64,000 nt of DNA from Escherichia phage vB_EcoM_JN03: sequence record OR885871; one strand, written 5' to 3'. Shown here piece after piece: positions 22,359 to 60,359 of this stretch. Under the pieces are notes generated by a model. That model saw nothing but the letters and a program-made list of their open reading frames with translations. It made no database searches and was not told where the DNA came from. The position numbers and the translations under genes are program-made. Numbering within the stretch: the stretch's first letter is position 1; every line of letters starts with the position of its first letter.

Positions 22359-22817
22359 ATGATATACGCATACAAAATTGAAACGATAACTAATGGAAAG
22401 GTCTACATCGGTGTGACCAATGACCCACAACGAAGATATGATCAGCATTTTGCGAATGCTTTTCATCATGGAGTCCAAAGTGAATTGTATGATGCCATGC
22501 GTAAGTATGGAACATCTGGATTTACTTTCGTTGTAATTGCTCAGACCGATGAAGTCCATAAATGGGAATTAGAGAAGCAACTCATCGCTCAATATAATTC
22601 TTATGAGATGGGTTACAACATGAATAAAGGCGGTAATGATGGAAGTCATATGCTGGGTAAAACTGCAGCAAAATTGACATCCACAGGTGAACACATTGGT
22701 CTTGTTTCTCTCATAGATCCCCGTTGGGAATTGTGTGAAATCGAACCCGTTTTAAGCAATGTTGACCACGGATTTGATTTTTCTTCCATGAAGATTAAAA
22801 GATTGACGACTAATTAG
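22359..22817 (+). CDS. GIY-YIG homing endonuclease (free-standing, short form)
   Basis: IYAYKIE...GKVYIGVT (GIY/YIG), RRYDQH (conserved Arg), YNMNKGGNDGSH (conserved Asn region). Inserted between the sheath and tube genes. Confidence 0.8.
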   Translation: MIYAYKIETITNGKVYIGVTNDPQRRYDQHFANAFHHGVQSELYDAMRKYGTSGFTFVVIAQTDEVHKWELEKQLIAQYNSYEMGYNMNKGGNDGSHMLGKTAAKLTSTGEHIGLVSLIDPRWELCEIEPVLSNVDHGFDFSSMKIKRLTTN

Positions 22818-28639: not shown

Positions 28640-28657
28640 TCGACAGGGTTTGATAAC

Positions 28658-28687
28658 AAACCCCGCCGAAGCGGGGTTTTTCTTTAT
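28658..28687 (+). terminator. Rho-independent terminator (aaaccccgccgaagcggggttt + U-tract)
   Basis: Strong hairpin and T-run right after the capsid gene. Confidence 0.75.
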
Positions 28688-28733
28688 AGGGATATGTAAG
28701 ATAATAAAGCCTCATTTATCAAAGGAGGTTAAA

Positions 28734-28970
28734 ATGTCTCATCAATTATCCGGCGGTGCCGTCGATACTCTATTCGTTCTTTTCTGGTTTGGACCTCGTG
28801 AAGCTGGGGAAATACCTGCTAAATCTGGAGAAGCCGAATTGGCCTCCCTGGGGTTTTGTAAACGAGTTGATGTTAAAAACGTACCAAAAGGTCGAGATAC
28901 ACATCTGTGTGTACTCACCGAGGAAGGTTACAAATACGCATATCTGAAATATGTTTCTCAAAATACGTGA
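28734..28970 (+). CDS. Hypothetical protein (78 aa)
   Basis: ATG with RBS aaaggagg; the ORF-track start at 28650 overlaps the terminator. Confidence 0.5.
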   Translation: MSHQLSGGAVDTLFVLFWFGPREAGEIPAKSGEAELASLGFCKRVDVKNVPKGRDTHLCVLTEEGYKYAYLKYVSQNT

Positions 28971-29057: not shown

Positions 29058-29372
29058 ATGACAACCCGAAATATTACCTCTGAACAATCCGTGTCACAAA
29101 TCCTCATTAATTCCCGCACCCAAAAAGAACGTCTTTTTGACATCCTCACTAATGTGATCAATATTCGTCGACAATTAGATGGTGAATTTCCCGAATCTGA
29201 TTCTGAAGAAAAATCAACACACAATCCAGGTCTTGTTGGTGCTATCCTTAACATACAAGGAGAGCAGGACGATATCATCGATAGAATCAATGCTCACATG
29301 GACGTCATCCATACTAAACTGGGAACGTTTTATCACCCAAATTGTGAAGACGAGTCTAAAGATAATTGTTAA
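29058..29372 (+). CDS. Hypothetical protein (104 aa)
   Basis: RBS caggag 8 nt upstream. Confidence 0.5.
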   Translation: MTTRNITSEQSVSQILINSRTQKERLFDILTNVINIRRQLDGEFPESDSEEKSTHNPGLVGAILNIQGEQDDIIDRINAHMDVIHTKLGTFYHPNCEDESKDNC

Positions 29373-30312: not shown

Positions 30313-30687
30313 ATGAGCAATTTACCACTGCTTCAAGTCGGCGATGTGTTCGTTCTCACAGAAGAAATGACCATTGAAACTCAGGTGCCTAAGCATTTCT
30401 TGTATTCTAATTGCAAGGGAGATTGGCAAACGGACTCTGGTTATATCACCCCTGAGGGATTCTTCGGTTACATGCAAGGGCATTATGTCGTTACCAAAAC
30501 AGCTCTACAAGGAGGTAGCGCTGGTCACGACCCATACCCAGACGGTCATCATGTTTGGGCACAGCATACCGAAAATGAACGCATCAGGATCTGTTTTTAT
30601 CAGACAGGCAGCTTCAGAAACATGCACCGTAACGTTCCAGTAGTCGGAAAAGCCAAGGCGCAAACATGGACTTGGGAGAAATTATGA
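30313..30687 (+). CDS. Hypothetical protein (124 aa)
   Basis: Compact spacing; no motif recognised. Confidence 0.45.
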   Translation: MSNLPLLQVGDVFVLTEEMTIETQVPKHFLYSNCKGDWQTDSGYITPEGFFGYMQGHYVVTKTALQGGSAGHDPYPDGHHVWAQHTENERIRICFYQTGSFRNMHRNVPVVGKAKAQTWTWEKL

Positions 30688-30920
30688 GAATCAAAAAGAT
30701 TGGAGCAAGCCCGTTGACGGGCACTATCTTCCAAGGTACATTGAATACCAAAACCAGTATGTGGGTAGGTGAGAAGACCGACGTGACTAACGACTGTGTA
30801 GCGGCTACGGCTGAACACATGCGCCACATCAAGAAAGACTACTGCTTCCCTACTAAAGACGGCAAGTTCCTGGTGCTGAGCGCTGAGGTTCACGACACTC
30901 TTCCTGATCGCTTCAAATAA
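30666..30920 (+). CDS. Hypothetical protein (84 aa; start may be the ATG at 30684)
   Basis: Overlaps the upstream gene; the ATG at 30684 has RBS ggaga. Confidence 0.4.
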   Translation: MDLGEIMRIKKIGASPLTGTIFQGTLNTKTSMWVGEKTDVTNDCVAATAEHMRHIKKDYCFPTKDGKFLVLSAEVHDTLPDRFK

Positions 30921-30945
30921 ATTTAAAATTTATTCAATAAACGGG

Positions 30946-30974
30946 GTTTACTTCTTCAATAAACCCCGTATACT
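30946..30974 (+). promoter_or_regulatory. Sigma70-like early promoter (GTTTAC - 17 nt - TATACT) embedded in a hairpin
   Basis: Same GGGGTTTAC -35 context as the cassettes at 49.7 and 50.05 kb; 17-nt spacer; upstream of the gene at 31008. Confidence 0.45.
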
Positions 30975-31007
30975 TCATTCCATAAGCAGCACAACACTGA
31001 CTCTGAA

Positions 31008-31319
31008 ATGAAGGACTACACCATGAACAACATGCCAACCACCAAAACTGCTCTGGAAATCGATTCTCGCTTTATCGTTGAAGCATGGGCCAACAGCCAA
31101 AACTCTTATGTGTATTCCCTTTATGTCGGTGACACTTATGTTTCTTGCCTCGGCATCGACGGCTCCAAGAACGAGCACGGCGTGAACGAGCGCTATACCA
31201 AAAAGCAGGCTATCGCTGATGCTACCAAATTCGCGACCGACATTCTGGGTCGCATCAATGCGGGTAAACCGTACAAACGCGGTGAAAAGGGCTATGTCAC
31301 CCAATTGCTTGGTGCTTGA
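31008..31319 (+). CDS. Hypothetical protein (103 aa)
   Basis: Start context gaaggactacaccATG, a recurring early-gene initiation motif in this window. Confidence 0.5.
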   Translation: MKDYTMNNMPTTKTALEIDSRFIVEAWANSQNSYVYSLYVGDTYVSCLGIDGSKNEHGVNERYTKKQAIADATKFATDILGRINAGKPYKRGEKGYVTQLLGA

Positions 31320-31388
31320 TTTGTTCTAAACCTTTGAACGGGGTATGTTAACCGCATACCCTATCCCCTACAAATAGAGGACTTTACC

Positions 31389-31733
31389 ATGACAGTCGAC
31401 ACCAAACTGAATAATTCCGTGGAGATCCCCAACATCGTCAAATTCGAAAAGCCGAGCGAGCGTAAGCCACGCAAAACGCGCCGCCTGGTCACCAAGCTGG
31501 ATCTTCTGAAACAGAAGTTCGGCGATCACAGTGTGTTCACTCGCATCCGTAACGCATTAAAGGAAGGGCGAACCGAGTTGGAGCTATATCGTCCAAACGG
31601 TTCCACTCGTGCGTATCAGACCACCGACGGCTTGCTGGAACTGATCCGCCTCTCGGGAATGAGCATAGAACCTCGTTCATCAGGGACTCCCTTGTGCAGC
31701 CTGTATGTAATCGGCAATCTTGGGGCGCTGTGA
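31389..31733 (+). CDS. Hypothetical protein (114 aa)
   Basis: RBS agagga; basic N-terminus. Confidence 0.45.
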   Translation: MTVDTKLNNSVEIPNIVKFEKPSERKPRKTRRLVTKLDLLKQKFGDHSVFTRIRNALKEGRTELELYRPNGSTRAYQTTDGLLELIRLSGMSIEPRSSGTPLCSLYVIGNLGAL

Positions 31734-31738
31734 GTTCT

Positions 31739-32161
31739 ATGAAGAAGTATATCGTTCTTATAACGGGTTCCCGTTCTATAACTGAGCGGGATAAAATATT
31801 TGCCAAATTAGATGAACTCTTAATCCCTCACGAGATAGAGACGTTTATTGAAGGTGAAGCAGTAGGTGTGGATCTGATATCCCGTGATTGGTGTGAAATC
31901 AATTATGTGCATATTACACCAATGCCGATTCCTCAAAATTACCATACGTTATATGGGAAAGGTGCGGGCAATCAACGTAACAAAGATATGCTGGACAAGG
32001 CTCTAACATTGGCGAAGCAAAAAGATCTTGAGGTCTTTGGAATTGCATTATGGGATGGTTCGTCTACTGGGACGCAAGACATGATCAAGCGCATGAAGAA
32101 AGCGGGAATAAATGTCAATATCACTCTCATGGGCAAACCCAAAACCAAACGATTGTTATAA
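31739..32161 (+). CDS. SLOG/LOG-like Rossmann-fold protein (DUF2493-like)
   Basis: N-terminal LITGSRS and downstream ALWDGSSTGTQDMIKR resemble the GGSR and PGGxGTxxE motifs of the Smf/DprA-LOG (SLOG) fold. Start uncertain (31694 or 31739). Confidence 0.45.
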   Translation: MKKYIVLITGSRSITERDKIFAKLDELLIPHEIETFIEGEAVGVDLISRDWCEINYVHITPMPIPQNYHTLYGKGAGNQRNKDMLDKALTLAKQKDLEVFGIALWDGSSTGTQDMIKRMKKAGINVNITLMGKPKTKRLL

Positions 32162-32191
32162 ATAAATTTGCCACCCATGAGGAGTTATACC

Positions 32192-32362
32192 ATGTTACAA
32201 ATACTGTTGGTGCTTTGTGTCGCATTTACCATGTACTTCATGGCGCGCATCTGTTTTATTACTTTAGATGACATGAAGGGTATCCCACGTGACCCCAAAT
32301 TCATCTTTCTGAAGAAGTTTGCCAAAAAGTTCTCAGAAAACTTTATTTATCATCTACCATGA
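32192..32362 (+). CDS. Small hydrophobic membrane protein (~57 aa)
   Basis: ATG with RBS gaggag; single TM helix LQILLVLCVAFTMYFMARICFI. Confidence 0.4.
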   Translation: MLQILLVLCVAFTMYFMARICFITLDDMKGIPRDPKFIFLKKFAKKFSENFIYHLP

Positions 32363-32392
32363 TTAAATACCCCCAAAATTGGGGGTATTTTT

Positions 32393-33121
32393 ATGAACGC
32401 ACAAATCTACGATGTCCTTTCCTCTGGTAACGCATTTAGCAATCCGCTTCCGTCCCTCTCCGGTCCCTCACAGGATTTAATCACCAGTGGTAGTACCAAT
32501 ATACCATTGATAACTGCCAACGCGACTCCGGAAATGCAGGTGGCTATGTCAGCAGGTGGATTAACACCAGATAAACTTACAGCAGCCACAAACATGTATA
32601 GCTCTGCCAACACGGGGATAACGACACTGAACACATATGGCGACCAGAGCATAAATGAAGCGTATTCAAGAATTGGGACTTCCGTTTCATATAAATCAGG
32701 TTTGAAAAGTATATCACGGGAACCAAACAATTGTGACCTGATCAACAAAGCATTCGGTGTTATTCAGGATCTAGGCCGCCAATGGTTAAACGCTATGGAA
32801 GGCGCTCTCCAGACTGTGACTAACAAGATATCGGAATTGTATGACATGATTATGGAAGGTGCCTCAGAAGGGATGGCAAAACTACAGCAATTGGCTGCTG
32901 AAGTAACAGGACATATCAATGAGGCAATAACCGCCGTCAATGGAGTTATAAATGATATCACCGATGGGATAGCTGCAGAACTTGCTCATATTGAAAGTAT
33001 GATCAAAGAATGTCTAAACTTCTCTTTTGCGAATGTTCTTGGAGAATGGGCCAAAGATCTCTGTGCTGGAGGCGTTATTGATAAAATAGGGACTCCAGAA
33101 TTAAAAGAGTCCCTGAAATAA
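32393..33121 (+). CDS. Hypothetical protein (242 aa), possibly virion-associated
   Basis: Preceded by the box TTAAATAC and a hairpin; Ser/Thr/Gly/Asn-rich N-terminus, helical C-terminus. Confidence 0.45.
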   Translation: MNAQIYDVLSSGNAFSNPLPSLSGPSQDLITSGSTNIPLITANATPEMQVAMSAGGLTPDKLTAATNMYSSANTGITTLNTYGDQSINEAYSRIGTSVSYKSGLKSISREPNNCDLINKAFGVIQDLGRQWLNAMEGALQTVTNKISELYDMIMEGASEGMAKLQQLAAEVTGHINEAITAVNGVINDITDGIAAELAHIESMIKECLNFSFANVLGEWAKDLCAGGVIDKIGTPELKESLK

Positions 33122-33820
33122 TCAATGTCTAGCGGGGAGAACTCCCACTGGTTCGATACCTTCCATCACCAGGGAGTTCACCCCAACATCACTCATTCGA
33201 ATCCATACTTTACCGCCTGGTCTTATTTCATAGATGTTCATTTCATTACCCACAGCAGATCCATTAACGAAAACACCCTGAGTGGCAATTCGGATCGGAG
33301 ATTTGGTGTTATTAACTATCTGAAATGATATTGCAACGTCTCTGGTGATTTCTACGTCCCTTGCTTGAGTATTCCTTCTGAGTTTGTCAAAGAAAGAAGG
33401 GTTGAAAGTCGCTATGATGCTATTATTCTGAGAGTAATAAATACTTGCGGATAGATATGGGATCTTTCCTTCGTCACCTTTCCTCAATAGGGGAATCGTG
33501 GTTTTCCAGTATGGTCTCAGTGACTGGTTGTTATCATCAAAACAACCAACAGCTTGAAGAGTCTGGAAGTTCTGAAAATCAGATACTACTTGATTCAGAA
33601 TATTTTTATTGCATTTATCAATGTCGGCTGAGATGTTAACAGGTATGGTTCTGATTTCAGGATCCCAGAGGTCGGTTACAGAAATGACGGACGTGACAAA
33701 GATACGGCAACTTGTGAGTGCAAGCACCATTATCATCGTCATGATCCATTTTCTGAATCCGCGTGTCAGGAACACTAAAACGTTCTCCACAGCAAAGGTG
33801 CTAACATGACAGGTGTACAA
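33122..33820 (-). CDS. Putative lipoprotein / membrane protein (minus strand)
   Basis: Positively charged n-region and hydrophobic stretch ending in lipobox-like LTSC (RGFRKWIMTMIMVLALTSC). True start may be an internal Met near 33742. Confidence 0.5.
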   Translation of the reverse strand: MYTCHVSTFAVENVLVFLTRGFRKWIMTMIMVLALTSCRIFVTSVISVTDLWDPEIRTIPVNISADIDKCNKNILNQVVSDFQNFQTLQAVGCFDDNNQSLRPYWKTTIPLLRKGDEGKIPYLSASIYYSQNNSIIATFNPSFFDKLRRNTQARDVEITRDVAISFQIVNNTKSPIRIATQGVFVNGSAVGNEMNIYEIRPGGKVWIRMSDVGVNSLVMEGIEPVGVLPARH

Positions 33821-37781: not shown

Positions 37782-38450
37782 ATGCAAGAGATCACTCTCT
37801 CCGAACGCACTTTACAACTGCTGGCTAACTTTGAAACCATCTGCCCCTCTATCGTTCTGGCACCTGGTAAAAAGTTGCGCACTGTTAACGATTCCAGTAC
37901 AGTTATCGCTATTGCCGACATTGACGAAGACTTCCCGTTCGAATTCCCGATTCTGGATCTGACCAAATTGCTGGCAATCCAGCGTCTGCCGAGTTTTAAA
38001 GGCGGTAAAATTGAAATGTCGGAAGACCACATTTTGCTGAAAGGTGAAAACTCCCAACTGCAATTCTGGCGTTCCGCTAAAGAACTGACTGTCGTTCCAG
38101 CAGACAGCATCGATCTTCCGTCTGTAGAATTTGAAGCAACAGTCACTCCTGAAAAAATGAAAGAGCTGACTCGCGCCTGTTCTACTCTGGGCCACAAAAC
38201 TGTACGCCTGGTGGCCAGCGGCGGTAAAACTCGTCTGGTGGGCACGACCACTACTATCGACAATTCCAACGATTACACTGTTGAGTTGGGTGAAACAACT
38301 CTGGGTGATTTTGCTATGCCTGTTGATGTGGTCAACCTGAAAATGATCGAAGGCAACTACGTGATCCGCGCCTGTGCCGAAATGCAACTGGTTAACTTCC
38401 AATCCGCAGACGGCACCATCAACTATTACGTCGGCATGCAGCTGGATTAA
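37782..38450 (+). CDS. gp45: Sliding clamp gp45 homolog
   Basis: Start at the ATG with RBS gagga; the ORF-track start is a TTG. 223 aa; N-terminus MQEITLSERTLQLLANFETI aligns with T4 gp45 MKLSKDTTALLKNFATI. Confidence 0.75.
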   Translation: MQEITLSERTLQLLANFETICPSIVLAPGKKLRTVNDSSTVIAIADIDEDFPFEFPILDLTKLLAIQRLPSFKGGKIEMSEDHILLKGENSQLQFWRSAKELTVVPADSIDLPSVEFEATVTPEKMKELTRACSTLGHKTVRLVASGGKTRLVGTTTTIDNSNDYTVELGETTLGDFAMPVDVVNLKMIEGNYVIRACAEMQLVNFQSADGTINYYVGMQLD

Positions 38451-59028: not shown

Positions 59029-59556
59029 ATGATTGAAATATACACTGACGGGGCATCGTCCCCTCAGAAGACACGAGCCGCTGGTTGGGCATTTGCCATC
59101 AGTCCAATCACTGGAGAGCAATGGAAAGTGTTTTATGGGTATTTACCCCCGCCGTCAACGAACAATATAGCTGAGTTACTCGGGGTTATAAACGCAATGA
59201 AGATCCTATGGAAATTCTCTAATTGCGGTGAACGCTGCATTCCCCCAGCCCGCATCATATCCGACAGCCAATATGTTATCAATAGCGTTTTGGAGTGGCG
59301 TCGTAAATGGGAATATGAAGGAATGCCGCCTAAGAACACAGAACTTCTGCTCGAGTTGTTCGATTATTATGACAAAGTTTGTTCAATTTGTGAACTTGAA
59401 TTAAAATGGGTGAAAGGTCATGCAGGAACGATGGGCAACGAAATTGCGGATCAGTGGAGCGTTAGAGCCAAAGAAGATAGTTCAATGGTTCTTGAAAATA
59501 ACCGTTTCTCGGTCAAGAAAGTCGTTGGTTCTTTCAATGAATTCATTGGTATTTGA
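59029..59556 (+). CDS. RNase HI-type ribonuclease H
   Basis: IYTDGAS, GWAF, NNIAELLGVINAM and KGHAGTMGNEIADQ are the canonical RNase HI catalytic blocks. Confidence 0.85.
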   Translation: MIEIYTDGASSPQKTRAAGWAFAISPITGEQWKVFYGYLPPPSTNNIAELLGVINAMKILWKFSNCGERCIPPARIISDSQYVINSVLEWRRKWEYEGMPPKNTELLLELFDYYDKVCSICELELKWVKGHAGTMGNEIADQWSVRAKEDSSMVLENNRFSVKKVVGSFNEFIGI

Positions 59557-59567
59557 GGATTATCACG

Positions 59568-60359
59568 ATGGGTATGAATTTTGTAGACAGGGGTGATAAC
59601 GTCACCAAATATTTCACAGACGAAGATAATGACCGTGTTGTTGGAATATTGAGAGATTGGATTCCGGCTCGCAAAAAGGCTTTGGCCGAAGGAACACCCC
59701 TACCAAGAATCCCCAATTATGTGGCCATGAATGTTCAGATGATTATTAAGAACATGAGTATGCGCTACAACTATCGTGATTATCCATACCGCGAAGACAT
59801 GGTCAGTGAGGCCGTTGTCAACATCCTTCGTTACCTCCATACATTTGACGTCAGTCATATCGGCAAGAAAGGAAAAATCAATTTCTTCTCTTGGGTAACG
59901 ATGTGCGCCGACCGTTCATTCGCCAAGAAACTCACCAGTGAAGAAGAACACAATTATATCAAGTTGCGTTCATTTGAAGAAGCAGGTGGTTTCGCTGCAT
60001 TATCAGATGACCCAGACTTCCAGCAACAGACATTCGTAGACAGCACTGGTATAACAATGGACTTCCGTGAGCGTATCGGAAATTTTGAAACTAAGAAAGA
60101 AGCCCAGCGCGAAAAGGAACGCCAAAAGCAAATCGCCATCAAAGAAGAGGAAAAGAATAAGAAAATTCCTCGCGGTATACTTCAATGTCTCACAAAGAGT
60201 GAAAATACCATTACCGCCGACGCCGAAGATAATTCAGACTATGACTTCGGCTCTACTCAATTCAATCTGGAAGACGAAATATGTTCTATGGAACCAGATT
60301 GGGAAGAAGCAAAGAAACGAGCATTAGAACGGGAGCAACAAAATAATGGCGATTGCTAA
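59568..60359 (+). CDS. gp55: Late sigma factor gp55 homolog
   Basis: NYRDYPYREDMVSEAVVNILRYLHTFD resembles T4 gp55 [29 protein letters not shown]. Start at the ATG with RBS gagga. Has an acidic/basic C-terminal extension. Confidence 0.65.
   Translation: MGMNFVDRGDNVTKYFTDEDNDRVVGILRDWIPARKKALAEGTPLPRIPNYVAMNVQMIIKNMSMRYNYRDYPYREDMVSEAVVNILRYLHTFDVSHIGKKGKINFFSWVTMCADRSFAKKLTSEEEHNYIKLRSFEEAGGFAALSDDPDFQQQTFVDSTGITMDFRERIGNFETKKEAQREKERQKQIAIKEEEKNKKIPRGILQCLTKSENTITADAEDNSDYDFGSTQFNLEDEICSMEPDWEEAKKRALEREQQNNGDC

Follow-up and report, generated by a model that had tools for sequence, protein, structure and literature searches.

The stretch of DNA analysed here, 64 000 nucleotides (nt) of the genome of Escherichia phage vB_EcoM_JN03 (sequence record OR885871) and hereafter called the window, carries at positions 31739–32161 a small gene for a stand-alone protein of the SLOG superfamily. 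The protein combines a conserved, putatively nucleotide-binding pocket with an invariant basic tail resembling that of the phage late-transcription coactivator, and our tentative reading is that this tail tethers it to the phage's own sliding clamp.

The SLOG gene and its conserved pocket

An open reading frame (ORF) with GSR and DGSSTGT motifs had been picked out at this position from the sequence. The ORF is real, running on the plus strand from an ATG start to a TAA stop and encoding 140 amino acids (aa). Both motifs are present, GSR at residues 10–12 (nt 31766–31774) and DGSSTGT at residues 106–112 (nt 32054–32074), and their invariance in 22 orthologues down to 45% identity, together with near invariance in a 74-member family alignment, marks them as selected features and rules out chance strings. 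GenBank starts the gene upstream at a GTG (31694), which gives a product of 155 aa and an overlap with the preceding gene. Because every full-length homologue cluster except one, and every sequence of the orthologue alignment, begins at the methionine of MKK..., we regard the ATG at 31739 as the better start. The gene and its conserved elements are as follows.

31739..32161, plus strand: SLOG (YAcAr/DUF2493) gene, ATG start, TAA stop, 140 aa
31763..31777, plus strand: TGSRS loop after strand 1, residues 9–13; G-S-R phosphate-binding loop, aligning with VVGSR of Escherichia coli Smf/DprA
31853..31873, plus strand: GEAVGVD after strand 2, residues 39–45; aligns with SGLARGID of Smf/DprA
31964..31981, plus strand: AGNQRN in the helix after strand 3, residues 76–81; R80 and N81 invariant family-wide
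32051..32074, plus strand: WDGSSTGT loop after strand 4, residues 105–112; followed by Q113-D114, with the invariant M115 just outside
32132..32158, plus strand: C-terminal tail GKPKTKRLL, residues 132–140; candidate sliding-clamp-binding peptide

A Pfam scan of the protein gave a single match, to PF10686 YAcAr (residues 5–56, E=7.1e-8, with a score of 32.6 bits where the cutoff is 28.2), the 'YspA, cpYpsA-related SLOG family' formerly called DUF2493. The same family is precomputed in 31 of 33 homologue clusters, the exceptions being two 79-aa fragments, and orthologues in UniProt are already named 'YspA cpYpsA-related SLOG domain-containing protein'. The protein also matches PHROG 289 (E=1.7e-42). 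Scans with PADLOC and NCBIfam returned no match, so that across Pfam, NCBIfam and PADLOC there is no homology to a curated family besides YAcAr.

From the orthologue alignment, AlphaFold2 predicts a five-stranded beta/alpha Rossmannoid core up to residue 130, followed by a low-confidence tail (predicted local distance difference test, pLDDT, 93; predicted template modelling score, pTM, 0.86). The core has the fold that defines the SLOG superfamily, a three-layer alpha/beta Rossmannoid with a central parallel sheet resembling LOG, DprA, YpsA and the SLOG domain of ThsA, and the sequence has the superfamily's motifs, TGSRS after strand 1 and AGNxRN in the helix after strand 3 (definition from PMC9503650). 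As had been predicted, no effector domain is fused to it: the protein consists of one SLOG domain (residues 1–130) and a 10-residue tail. In the 22 orthologues the invariant residues are T9-G10-S11-R12, G39, A41, G43, D45, G77, R80, N81, W105-D106-G107, S109-T110-G111-T112, M115 and most of the last ten. Across the 74-member alignment G39, G43, D45, R80 and N81 are invariant, and conservation is 90% or higher at G10, R12, A41, A76, G77, M84, S109, G111 and T112.

When this alignment is placed on the AlphaFold2 model, the conserved residues all fall in loops or helix starts directly after strands. The ligand site of Rossmann-type folds is the region just after the strands, and the family therefore keeps one intact ligand site. 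Family membership, predicted fold and pocket conservation together establish a Rossmann-like SLOG fold with its pocket at the C-terminal strand ends, of the kind that binds nucleotide phosphate-ribose. In the TIR/DrHyd/SLOG clade, the distinguishing active-site residues sit at the position equivalent to AGNQRN (PMC9503650). The orthologue of Escherichia phage PhaxI reads LLWESAGNQRNPRYADNALSWQSKKILRVFG at residues ~70–100 where LYGKGAGNQRNKDMLDKALTLAKQKDLEVFG is expected; this garbled segment looks like the product of compensating frameshifts from sequence errors, and real divergence is unlikely.

The SLOG identity itself is already known, and the family is a catalogued and widespread one. Searching 1.84 billion cluster representatives with a profile gave 18,580 matches at E<=1e-3, and the majority of the 150 best-listed representatives are stand-alone proteins of 110–150 aa. 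By tblastn, the YAcAr family occurs in 563 of 50,697 phage records, and Foldseek against BFVD found 55 viral models at E<=1e-3, including relatives of mycobacteriophage D29 gp61 and models from haloviruses, marseilleviruses and pandoraviruses. The phage protein is a direct member of PF10686, in that it has the residues that never vary across the family and the length typical of its stand-alone members, whereas its invariant 10-residue C-terminal tail is an addition of the Ackermannviridae clade that is missing in most other viral members. No solved YAcAr structure was found among PDB sequences (phmmer and profile search), and no YAcAr/DUF2493 member with a characterized function was found in the searchable literature. 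The mentions of DUF2493 that we found were in genome notes, with the sole exception of the helicase HelB of phage ICP1.

The original prediction described the fold as SLOG/LOG-like. Its first half is borne out by the PF10686 match, the AlphaFold2 fold and the conserved pocket; its second half is not, as the LOG signature is missing. LOG enzymes have the motif PGGxGTxxE with a catalytic Glu together with GGGxGxMG. The corresponding loop in the phage protein is WDGSSTGTQDM and, when the two are aligned on GT, the position of the Glu that characterizes the LOG/PpnN phosphoribohydrolases is taken by the invariant Met115 (the adjacent D114 is His in some orthologues). PF03641 (Lysine_decarbox) had no match in the Pfam scan, and hhalign of the 74-member family profile against the E. 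coli LOG enzyme PpnN was insignificant (E=0.064, probability 0.9%). Because Met115 stands at the catalytic position, LOG-type catalysis is unlikely.

The nearest sequence relative of the family is DprA, not LOG, by a similarity that is sub-threshold yet consistent. Against E. coli Smf/DprA the same profile aligned over 58 columns, covering the GSR loop and a G-A-G-D motif (E=5e-4, probability 31%), and three of ten longer family members had sub-threshold matches to PF02481 (DprA), whereas the window protein had none even at E<=1. Two of the ten longer members are tandem SLOG duplications. Compared by structure, YpsA is closest, by a small margin; however, identity to YpsA of Bacillus subtilis (PDB 2NX2) and to the SLOG domain of ThsA (PDB 7UXS) is just 15–18%, and the phage protein lacks a Sir2 or other effector domain. 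It likewise lacks the SAM-like and winged-helix domains of DprA/Smf, a group that includes the Shosta defence protein ShosA.

The similarity to DprA raises the question of whether the protein is a DprA-like recombination mediator, which would bind single-stranded DNA and aid UvsX loading, with or without the clamp, its tail perhaps binding another partner. We regard this as distinctly unlikely: the two accessory domains of DprA are missing, the similarity falls under the Pfam threshold, and the phage already has a mediator, UvsY.

The C-terminal tail and the late-transcription coactivator

AlphaFold2 predicts that the tail is disordered (mean pLDDT 54 for residues 131–140, and <50 for residues 137–140). 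In the orthologue alignment it is the most conserved stretch of the protein, invariant to 44% identity, and the pattern GKPK[T/S]KRL[L/I] recurs across contigs of Kuttervirus, Agtrevirus/Limestonevirus, Taipeivirus, Miltonvirus and Erwinia-phage type. Conservation of a disordered peptide at a protein terminus usually marks a short linear interaction motif. Codons vary synonymously at seven of the nine tail positions (e.g. GGC/GGT, CCC/CCG/CCT/CCA, CGA/CGC/CGT, TTG/CTT/CTG), so that what is under selection is the peptide, and no DNA signal lying over it. A T4-type late promoter, TATAAATA, lying over the stop codon was considered as the cause of the conservation and rejected, given this codon variation and a single match in 64 kb against 2.1 expected.

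We scanned the complete 156.8-kb genome of Kuttervirus aagejoakim, in the form of 1082 six-frame ORFs, each 40 aa or longer, for similar C-termini. Two of the 1082 end in K[ST]K[KR]L[LIMF]: the SLOG protein and aagejoakim_111, which ends GELKSKKLI and ranks first among the 1081 other ORFs for tail similarity (ungapped BLOSUM62; z-scores of 4.4 and 3.9 over the last six and eight residues, respectively). The latter protein belongs to PF16805, 'phage late-transcription coactivator', the family of T4 gp33 (E=4.6e-19; PHROG 254), and its own tail, KSKK[LI] plus one hydrophobic residue, is invariant in 20 orthologues. In Serratia phage 3M the coactivator tail KPRSKKLI can be set beside the SLOG tail KPKSKRLI, and more distant coactivators end in KVKTRKLF (Vibrio phage D509) and SKTKRILK (Vibrio phage VP-1).

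The C-terminus of T4 gp33 is a sliding-clamp-binding motif, 106-NTLDFLL-112, which is essential for clamp-activated late transcription and interchangeable with the motifs of gp55 and of gp43, the DNA polymerase (PMC2988020; PMC7892883). As the tail of the Ackermannviridae coactivator occupies the position of this motif, positional homology implies that it should bind the clamp, and by analogy with T4 it is probably the sliding-clamp-binding motif of this coactivator. With the motifs of T4 gp33, gp55, gp43 and ligase the SLOG tail shares its shortness, its disorder and its place at the very C-terminus, where Leu and a hydrophobic residue come last. A basic-then-Leu motif, K[RK]RVNL[LM], is also kept by the Ackermannviridae DNA polymerase, 6–11 residues before its C-terminus. 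The occurrence of a clamp-type tail on a SLOG protein is a new observation, modest and limited to one clade.

The proposed partner is encoded 3' of the SLOG gene in the window.

37782..38450, plus strand: gp45-type sliding clamp gene, proposed partner of the tail; PHROG 223 'DNA polymerase processivity factor' (E=1.5e-65), with a weak Pfam gp45-slide_C match

The clamp protein is acidic, with an isoelectric point of 4.7, which is compatible with a basic ligand and is not evidence for one.

Several observations weigh against a clamp-binding tail. In T4 the motifs combine hydrophobic with acidic residues (LDFL, then L, Y or F), whereas the Ackermannviridae peptide, K-[ST]-K-[KR]-L and a final hydrophobic residue, is strongly basic, so that positional homology is what connects the gp33-like tail with the clamp. 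The motif of the DNA polymerase matches the tail only loosely, and the gp55-like sigma factor has no conserved copy in the Kutterviruses compared. The tail is also clade-specific. Most of the 80 best other viral loci stop within a few residues of strand 5, and the core function of the SLOG domain therefore cannot depend on the clamp; the idea of a clamp-binding tail as a family-wide trait was dropped for this reason. Finally, a basic cluster with an aliphatic C-terminus also resembles a ClpX recognition tag of the MuA type.

The last point can be developed into a different account, in which the tail is a ClpX-type tag or a generic basic tail that binds DNA or RNA, and the SLOG domain is a soluble enzyme of nucleotide metabolism, for example a mononucleotide N-glycosidase of a thymidine-replacing phage. 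MuA ends in RRKKAI-COOH, and the SLOG protein similarly places aliphatic residues after a basic cluster at its extreme C-terminus. Kutterviruses carry a thymidylate-synthase homologue, a dUTPase, a dCMP deaminase, a dNMP kinase and a 5'(3')-deoxyribonucleotidase, and SLOG/LOG enzymes cleave nucleotide N-glycosidic bonds (PMC9503650). However, the LOG catalytic Glu is missing, the family is also found in giant viruses and in phages without reported DNA hypermodification (mycobacteriophages and Campylobacter phages), and the coactivator's copy of the tail coincides in position with the essential clamp-binding motif of T4 gp33. We therefore rate this account as improbable.

Some further C-termini were recorded in the course of these comparisons. 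A few database representatives of the family end in beta-clamp-like or T4-like motifs (NPQQSLF, SQPRLF and KTSLDMFYE). The gp55-like late sigma factor of the window (59553–60359) has an extreme C-terminus that differs among Kutterviruses, EEAKKRALEREQQNNGDC against SPTLLAESVGEKNNGDC, and its terminal 'AKKRAL' was rejected as an extra copy of the motif, not being conserved among them. Upstream of the variable end lies a conserved acidic-hydrophobic segment, DFGSTQF[N/S]LED, which could be the T4-type clamp-binding motif of this factor. A 368-aa protein encoded outside the window, aagejoakim_186 (MT074474.1 140966–142075, PHROG 2087), ends in YKRLF; among annotated Kuttervirus proteins it is the sole further one with a C-terminal [KR][KR]L followed by a hydrophobic residue, and on that resemblance it is a possible further clamp client.

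Possible action at the sliding clamp

The reading that we prefer, though with rather less than an even chance of being right, is that in Ackermannviridae the tail holds a DprA-like SLOG protein on the phage sliding clamp, so that the protein operates on DNA that has been loaded with the clamp. The flexible invariant peptide GKPK[T/S]KRL[L/I]-COOH would dock the protein onto the phage's own gp45-type clamp, as we infer because a peptide of the same class ends the gp33-family coactivator at the position of the T4 gp33 motif. Bound there, the protein may work at replication forks, nicks or late-transcription complexes, where its DprA-like pocket (G-S-R, GxAxGxD and RN) would hold on to a nucleotide of DNA that is single-stranded or nicked, or would act as the sensor of a nucleotide ligand. 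In this role it would assist replication, recombination or late transcription, instead of serving as a diffusible sponge or as a hydrolase of LOG type.

A link to DNA is suggested by several lines of evidence beyond the tail, namely the similarity to DprA, fusions of the domain to replication proteins, the Jedunavirus polymerase operon and the replication-gene neighbourhood. DUF2493 forms the C-terminus of the superfamily 1B (SF1B) helicase HelB in ICP1 (10.1101/671271) and is fused to DciA in Streptomyces (10.1101/2022.01.24.477630), and SLOG fusions with HNH, 3'-5' exonuclease and SF1 helicase domains are on record (PMC9503650). In Jedunavirus, the DUF2493 gene closes the DNA-polymerase operon, its start overlapping the stop of the gene before it. 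In Se-B, the region downstream of the SLOG gene encodes a DUF7217 structural protein, a lipoprotein on the opposite strand (DUF7424), a tail-completion protein and UvsY, together with an exonuclease and a helicase, and then the subunits of the clamp loader and the clamp itself. The SLOG gene of a relative with 40% identity, whose tail is SKSKRLF, is again found beside genes for DUF7424, the tail-completion protein, UvsY, a PD-(D/E)XK exonuclease and a helicase.

Neighbourhoods in other phages are heterogeneous, which counts against this reading. Among 150 neighbours of 74 other viral homologues no partner dominates: ParB_N was counted six times, DNA methylase four, gp23 and topoisomerase three each, and UvsY and DnaB twice each, whereas genes of NAD or RNA repair or of anti-defence are represented by KptA, Tad3 and Thg1 (two each) and HAD_SAK_2 (one). 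As DNA-metabolism genes are mixed with a few of the other kind, function is not decided by neighbourhood. The two Tad3 cases are phage contigs in which a gene for PF25185, 'Type I Thoeris inhibitor Tad3', lies ~1 kb or less from the YAcAr gene; KptA or Thg1 is carried by two other contigs, and a HAD_SAK_2 RNA-repair gene by one.

The original prediction proposed that the protein sequesters or processes host nucleotide signals. An immune-nucleotide degrading or sequestering role is an already published prediction for stand-alone viral SLOGs and is not new: Iyer et al. (2022, PMC9503650) reported viral SLOGs in 7% of small, 19% of medium and 31% of jumbo phages, described them as mostly YpsA-like and typically stand-alone, and predicted that they degrade immune signals of the cyclic ADP-ribose (cADPR) type. 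Applied to the window protein, the pocket of a freely diffusing anti-defence factor would bind, or cleave N-glycosidically, an immune nucleotide such as a cADPR isomer derived from ADP-ribose (ADPR), thereby blunting Thoeris-like signalling. We consider this unlikely, although it is a possibility of some weight. In the searchable literature no experimental support was found for an immune-signal role of any YAcAr protein, and the anti-Thoeris proteins listed in a 2026 paper (Tad1–8 and TadIII-1; PMC13243611) are sponges or protein binders, which that paper does not describe as SLOG proteins. Neither PADLOC nor NCBIfam matched the protein, and Macro, NADAR, Nudix and DUF4326 were absent from the eight neighbouring genes scanned against Pfam or PHROGs. 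The replacement of the LOG catalytic Glu by Met115, the affinity to DprA and the gp33-type tail all speak against a freely acting sponge or a hydrolase resembling LOG, and a sponge would leave unexplained why an invariant disordered tail is common to the protein and the gp33-like coactivator.

Clamp tethering and signal binding are not mutually exclusive, and a clamp-bound sensor of a nucleotide signal is conceivable. In one such arrangement, occupancy of the pocket by a ligand (an NAD/ADPR-derived signal, a metabolite of the nucleotide pool or a DNA end) would gate replication against clamp-activated late transcription, the SLOG protein competing with or complementing gp33, and perhaps the polymerase, on the clamp through its gp33-type peptide. 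We put this forward as a long shot; were it true, it would link nucleotide or immune-signal sensing directly to T4-type clamp-dependent transcription.

YAcAr/DUF2493 proteins are among the commoner unexplained accessory genes of large phages and giant viruses. The clamp-type tail offers a concrete, cheap and falsifiable handle on whether the family's pocket serves DNA action at the replisome or the soaking up of immune signals. If clamp tethering is real, it would provide a previously unreported context for a SLOG domain, and would define the sliding-clamp-binding motif of the Ackermannviridae as an apparently basic one, in contrast to the acidic-hydrophobic type of T4.

Annotation, surroundings and expression signals of the locus

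Over positions 30500–33500 the window shares 99.7% identity with Salmonella phages Se-B and SeHz-1, and 271 phage records match, almost all of them Ackermannviridae. These matches identify the phage as a Kuttervirus (Ackermannviridae), a Vi1-like myovirus of ~158 kb that is related to T4 at a distance. The SLOG protein is carried by all Vi1-like Salmonella phages. Its counterpart in Se-B is gp162, and comparison with that phage puts the SLOG gene after the major head protein gene, within a series of small ORFs.

In Se-B, gp162 is labelled 'GTP-binding domain', and the notion of a GTP-binding protein is carried by most GenBank records and by the label of PHROG 289. Inherited annotation is all that speaks for it, and we give it almost no credence: the sequence has no Walker A/P-loop GxxxxGK[ST], no GTPase family matched in Pfam or NCBIfam, and the PHROG 289 profile is a 500-column composite over three separate genes. 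The label is unsupported here and should be corrected, a worthwhile step since it is spreading across phage annotation. The SLOG gene, a gene for a 56-aa membrane protein (32192–32362) and the DUF7217 structural gene (32393–33121) lie in one reading frame with a single stop between each. A fusion of the three, of 475 aa, is annotated in Salmonella phage 38 (KR296692.1 59288–60715; also a BFVD entry) and was rejected as a frameshift artefact: the record is of low quality and has many split genes, the fused ORF results from indels, and the DNA still encodes KPKTKRLL-TAA. The PHROG 289 composite probably stems from records like this one, as inferred from one traced fused record.

The gene immediately upstream of the SLOG gene is also conserved.

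31389..31733, plus strand: conserved upstream neighbour, 114 aa, PHROG 4663, ending 5 nt before the SLOG start

A homologue of this neighbour lies directly 5' of the SLOG gene in contigs of Kuttervirus, Agtrevirus/Limestonevirus and Taipeivirus type. It has a conserved alpha/beta core, for which structural matches were uninformative, and a disordered Arg/Lys-rich N-terminal region (e.g. KPRKTRRLV) that differs among genera. The basic stretch KPRKTRRLV was tried as an extra copy of the tail motif and set aside, because the region is variable and missing in other genera. Between 31320 and 31388, 5' of the PHROG 4663 gene, lies an inverted repeat, GGGGTATG-TTAACC-GCATACCC, which lacks a T-run and could be an RNA stability or processing hairpin.

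A strong intrinsic terminator on the plus strand, AAACCCCGCCGAAGCGGGGTTT followed by a T-run (28658–28679), stands right after the major head protein gene, and a sigma70-like match, TTGACA-17-AATATT, is found at 29137–29165. The terminator falls inside the ORF annotated as Se-B gp154 (28650–28970), and gp154 may therefore not be a real gene. The sequence CTAAATA occurs on the plus strand at 2572, 4630, 9590, 16106, 20356, 25139, 26357 and 35540, and all eight sites lie ~10–35 nt 5' of plus-strand gene starts (tail fibre, neck, sheath, prohead and helicase). The total of ten in the window, against 6.9 expected, is not above chance, so that the signal is in the placement of the sites and not in their number. 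On this placement, CTAAATA is probably the late-promoter core of the phage, a variant of TATAAATA of T4. None occurs between the terminator at 28658–28679 and the SLOG gene, and this hints that expression of the SLOG gene is non-late. A literature search for transcriptome data on Ackermannviridae found nothing relevant.

Two observations concern the wider genome and its relatives. A gene for a GIY-YIG homing endonuclease (22359–22817), annotated in Se-B and aagejoakim, lies between the tail sheath and tail tube genes. Lastly, the 111-kb record OR844942.1 bears the name 'Enterococcus phage Efm 3-10' but matches this Salmonella Kuttervirus at 96% identity along the 3 kb used as query, and is probably mislabelled or contaminated.

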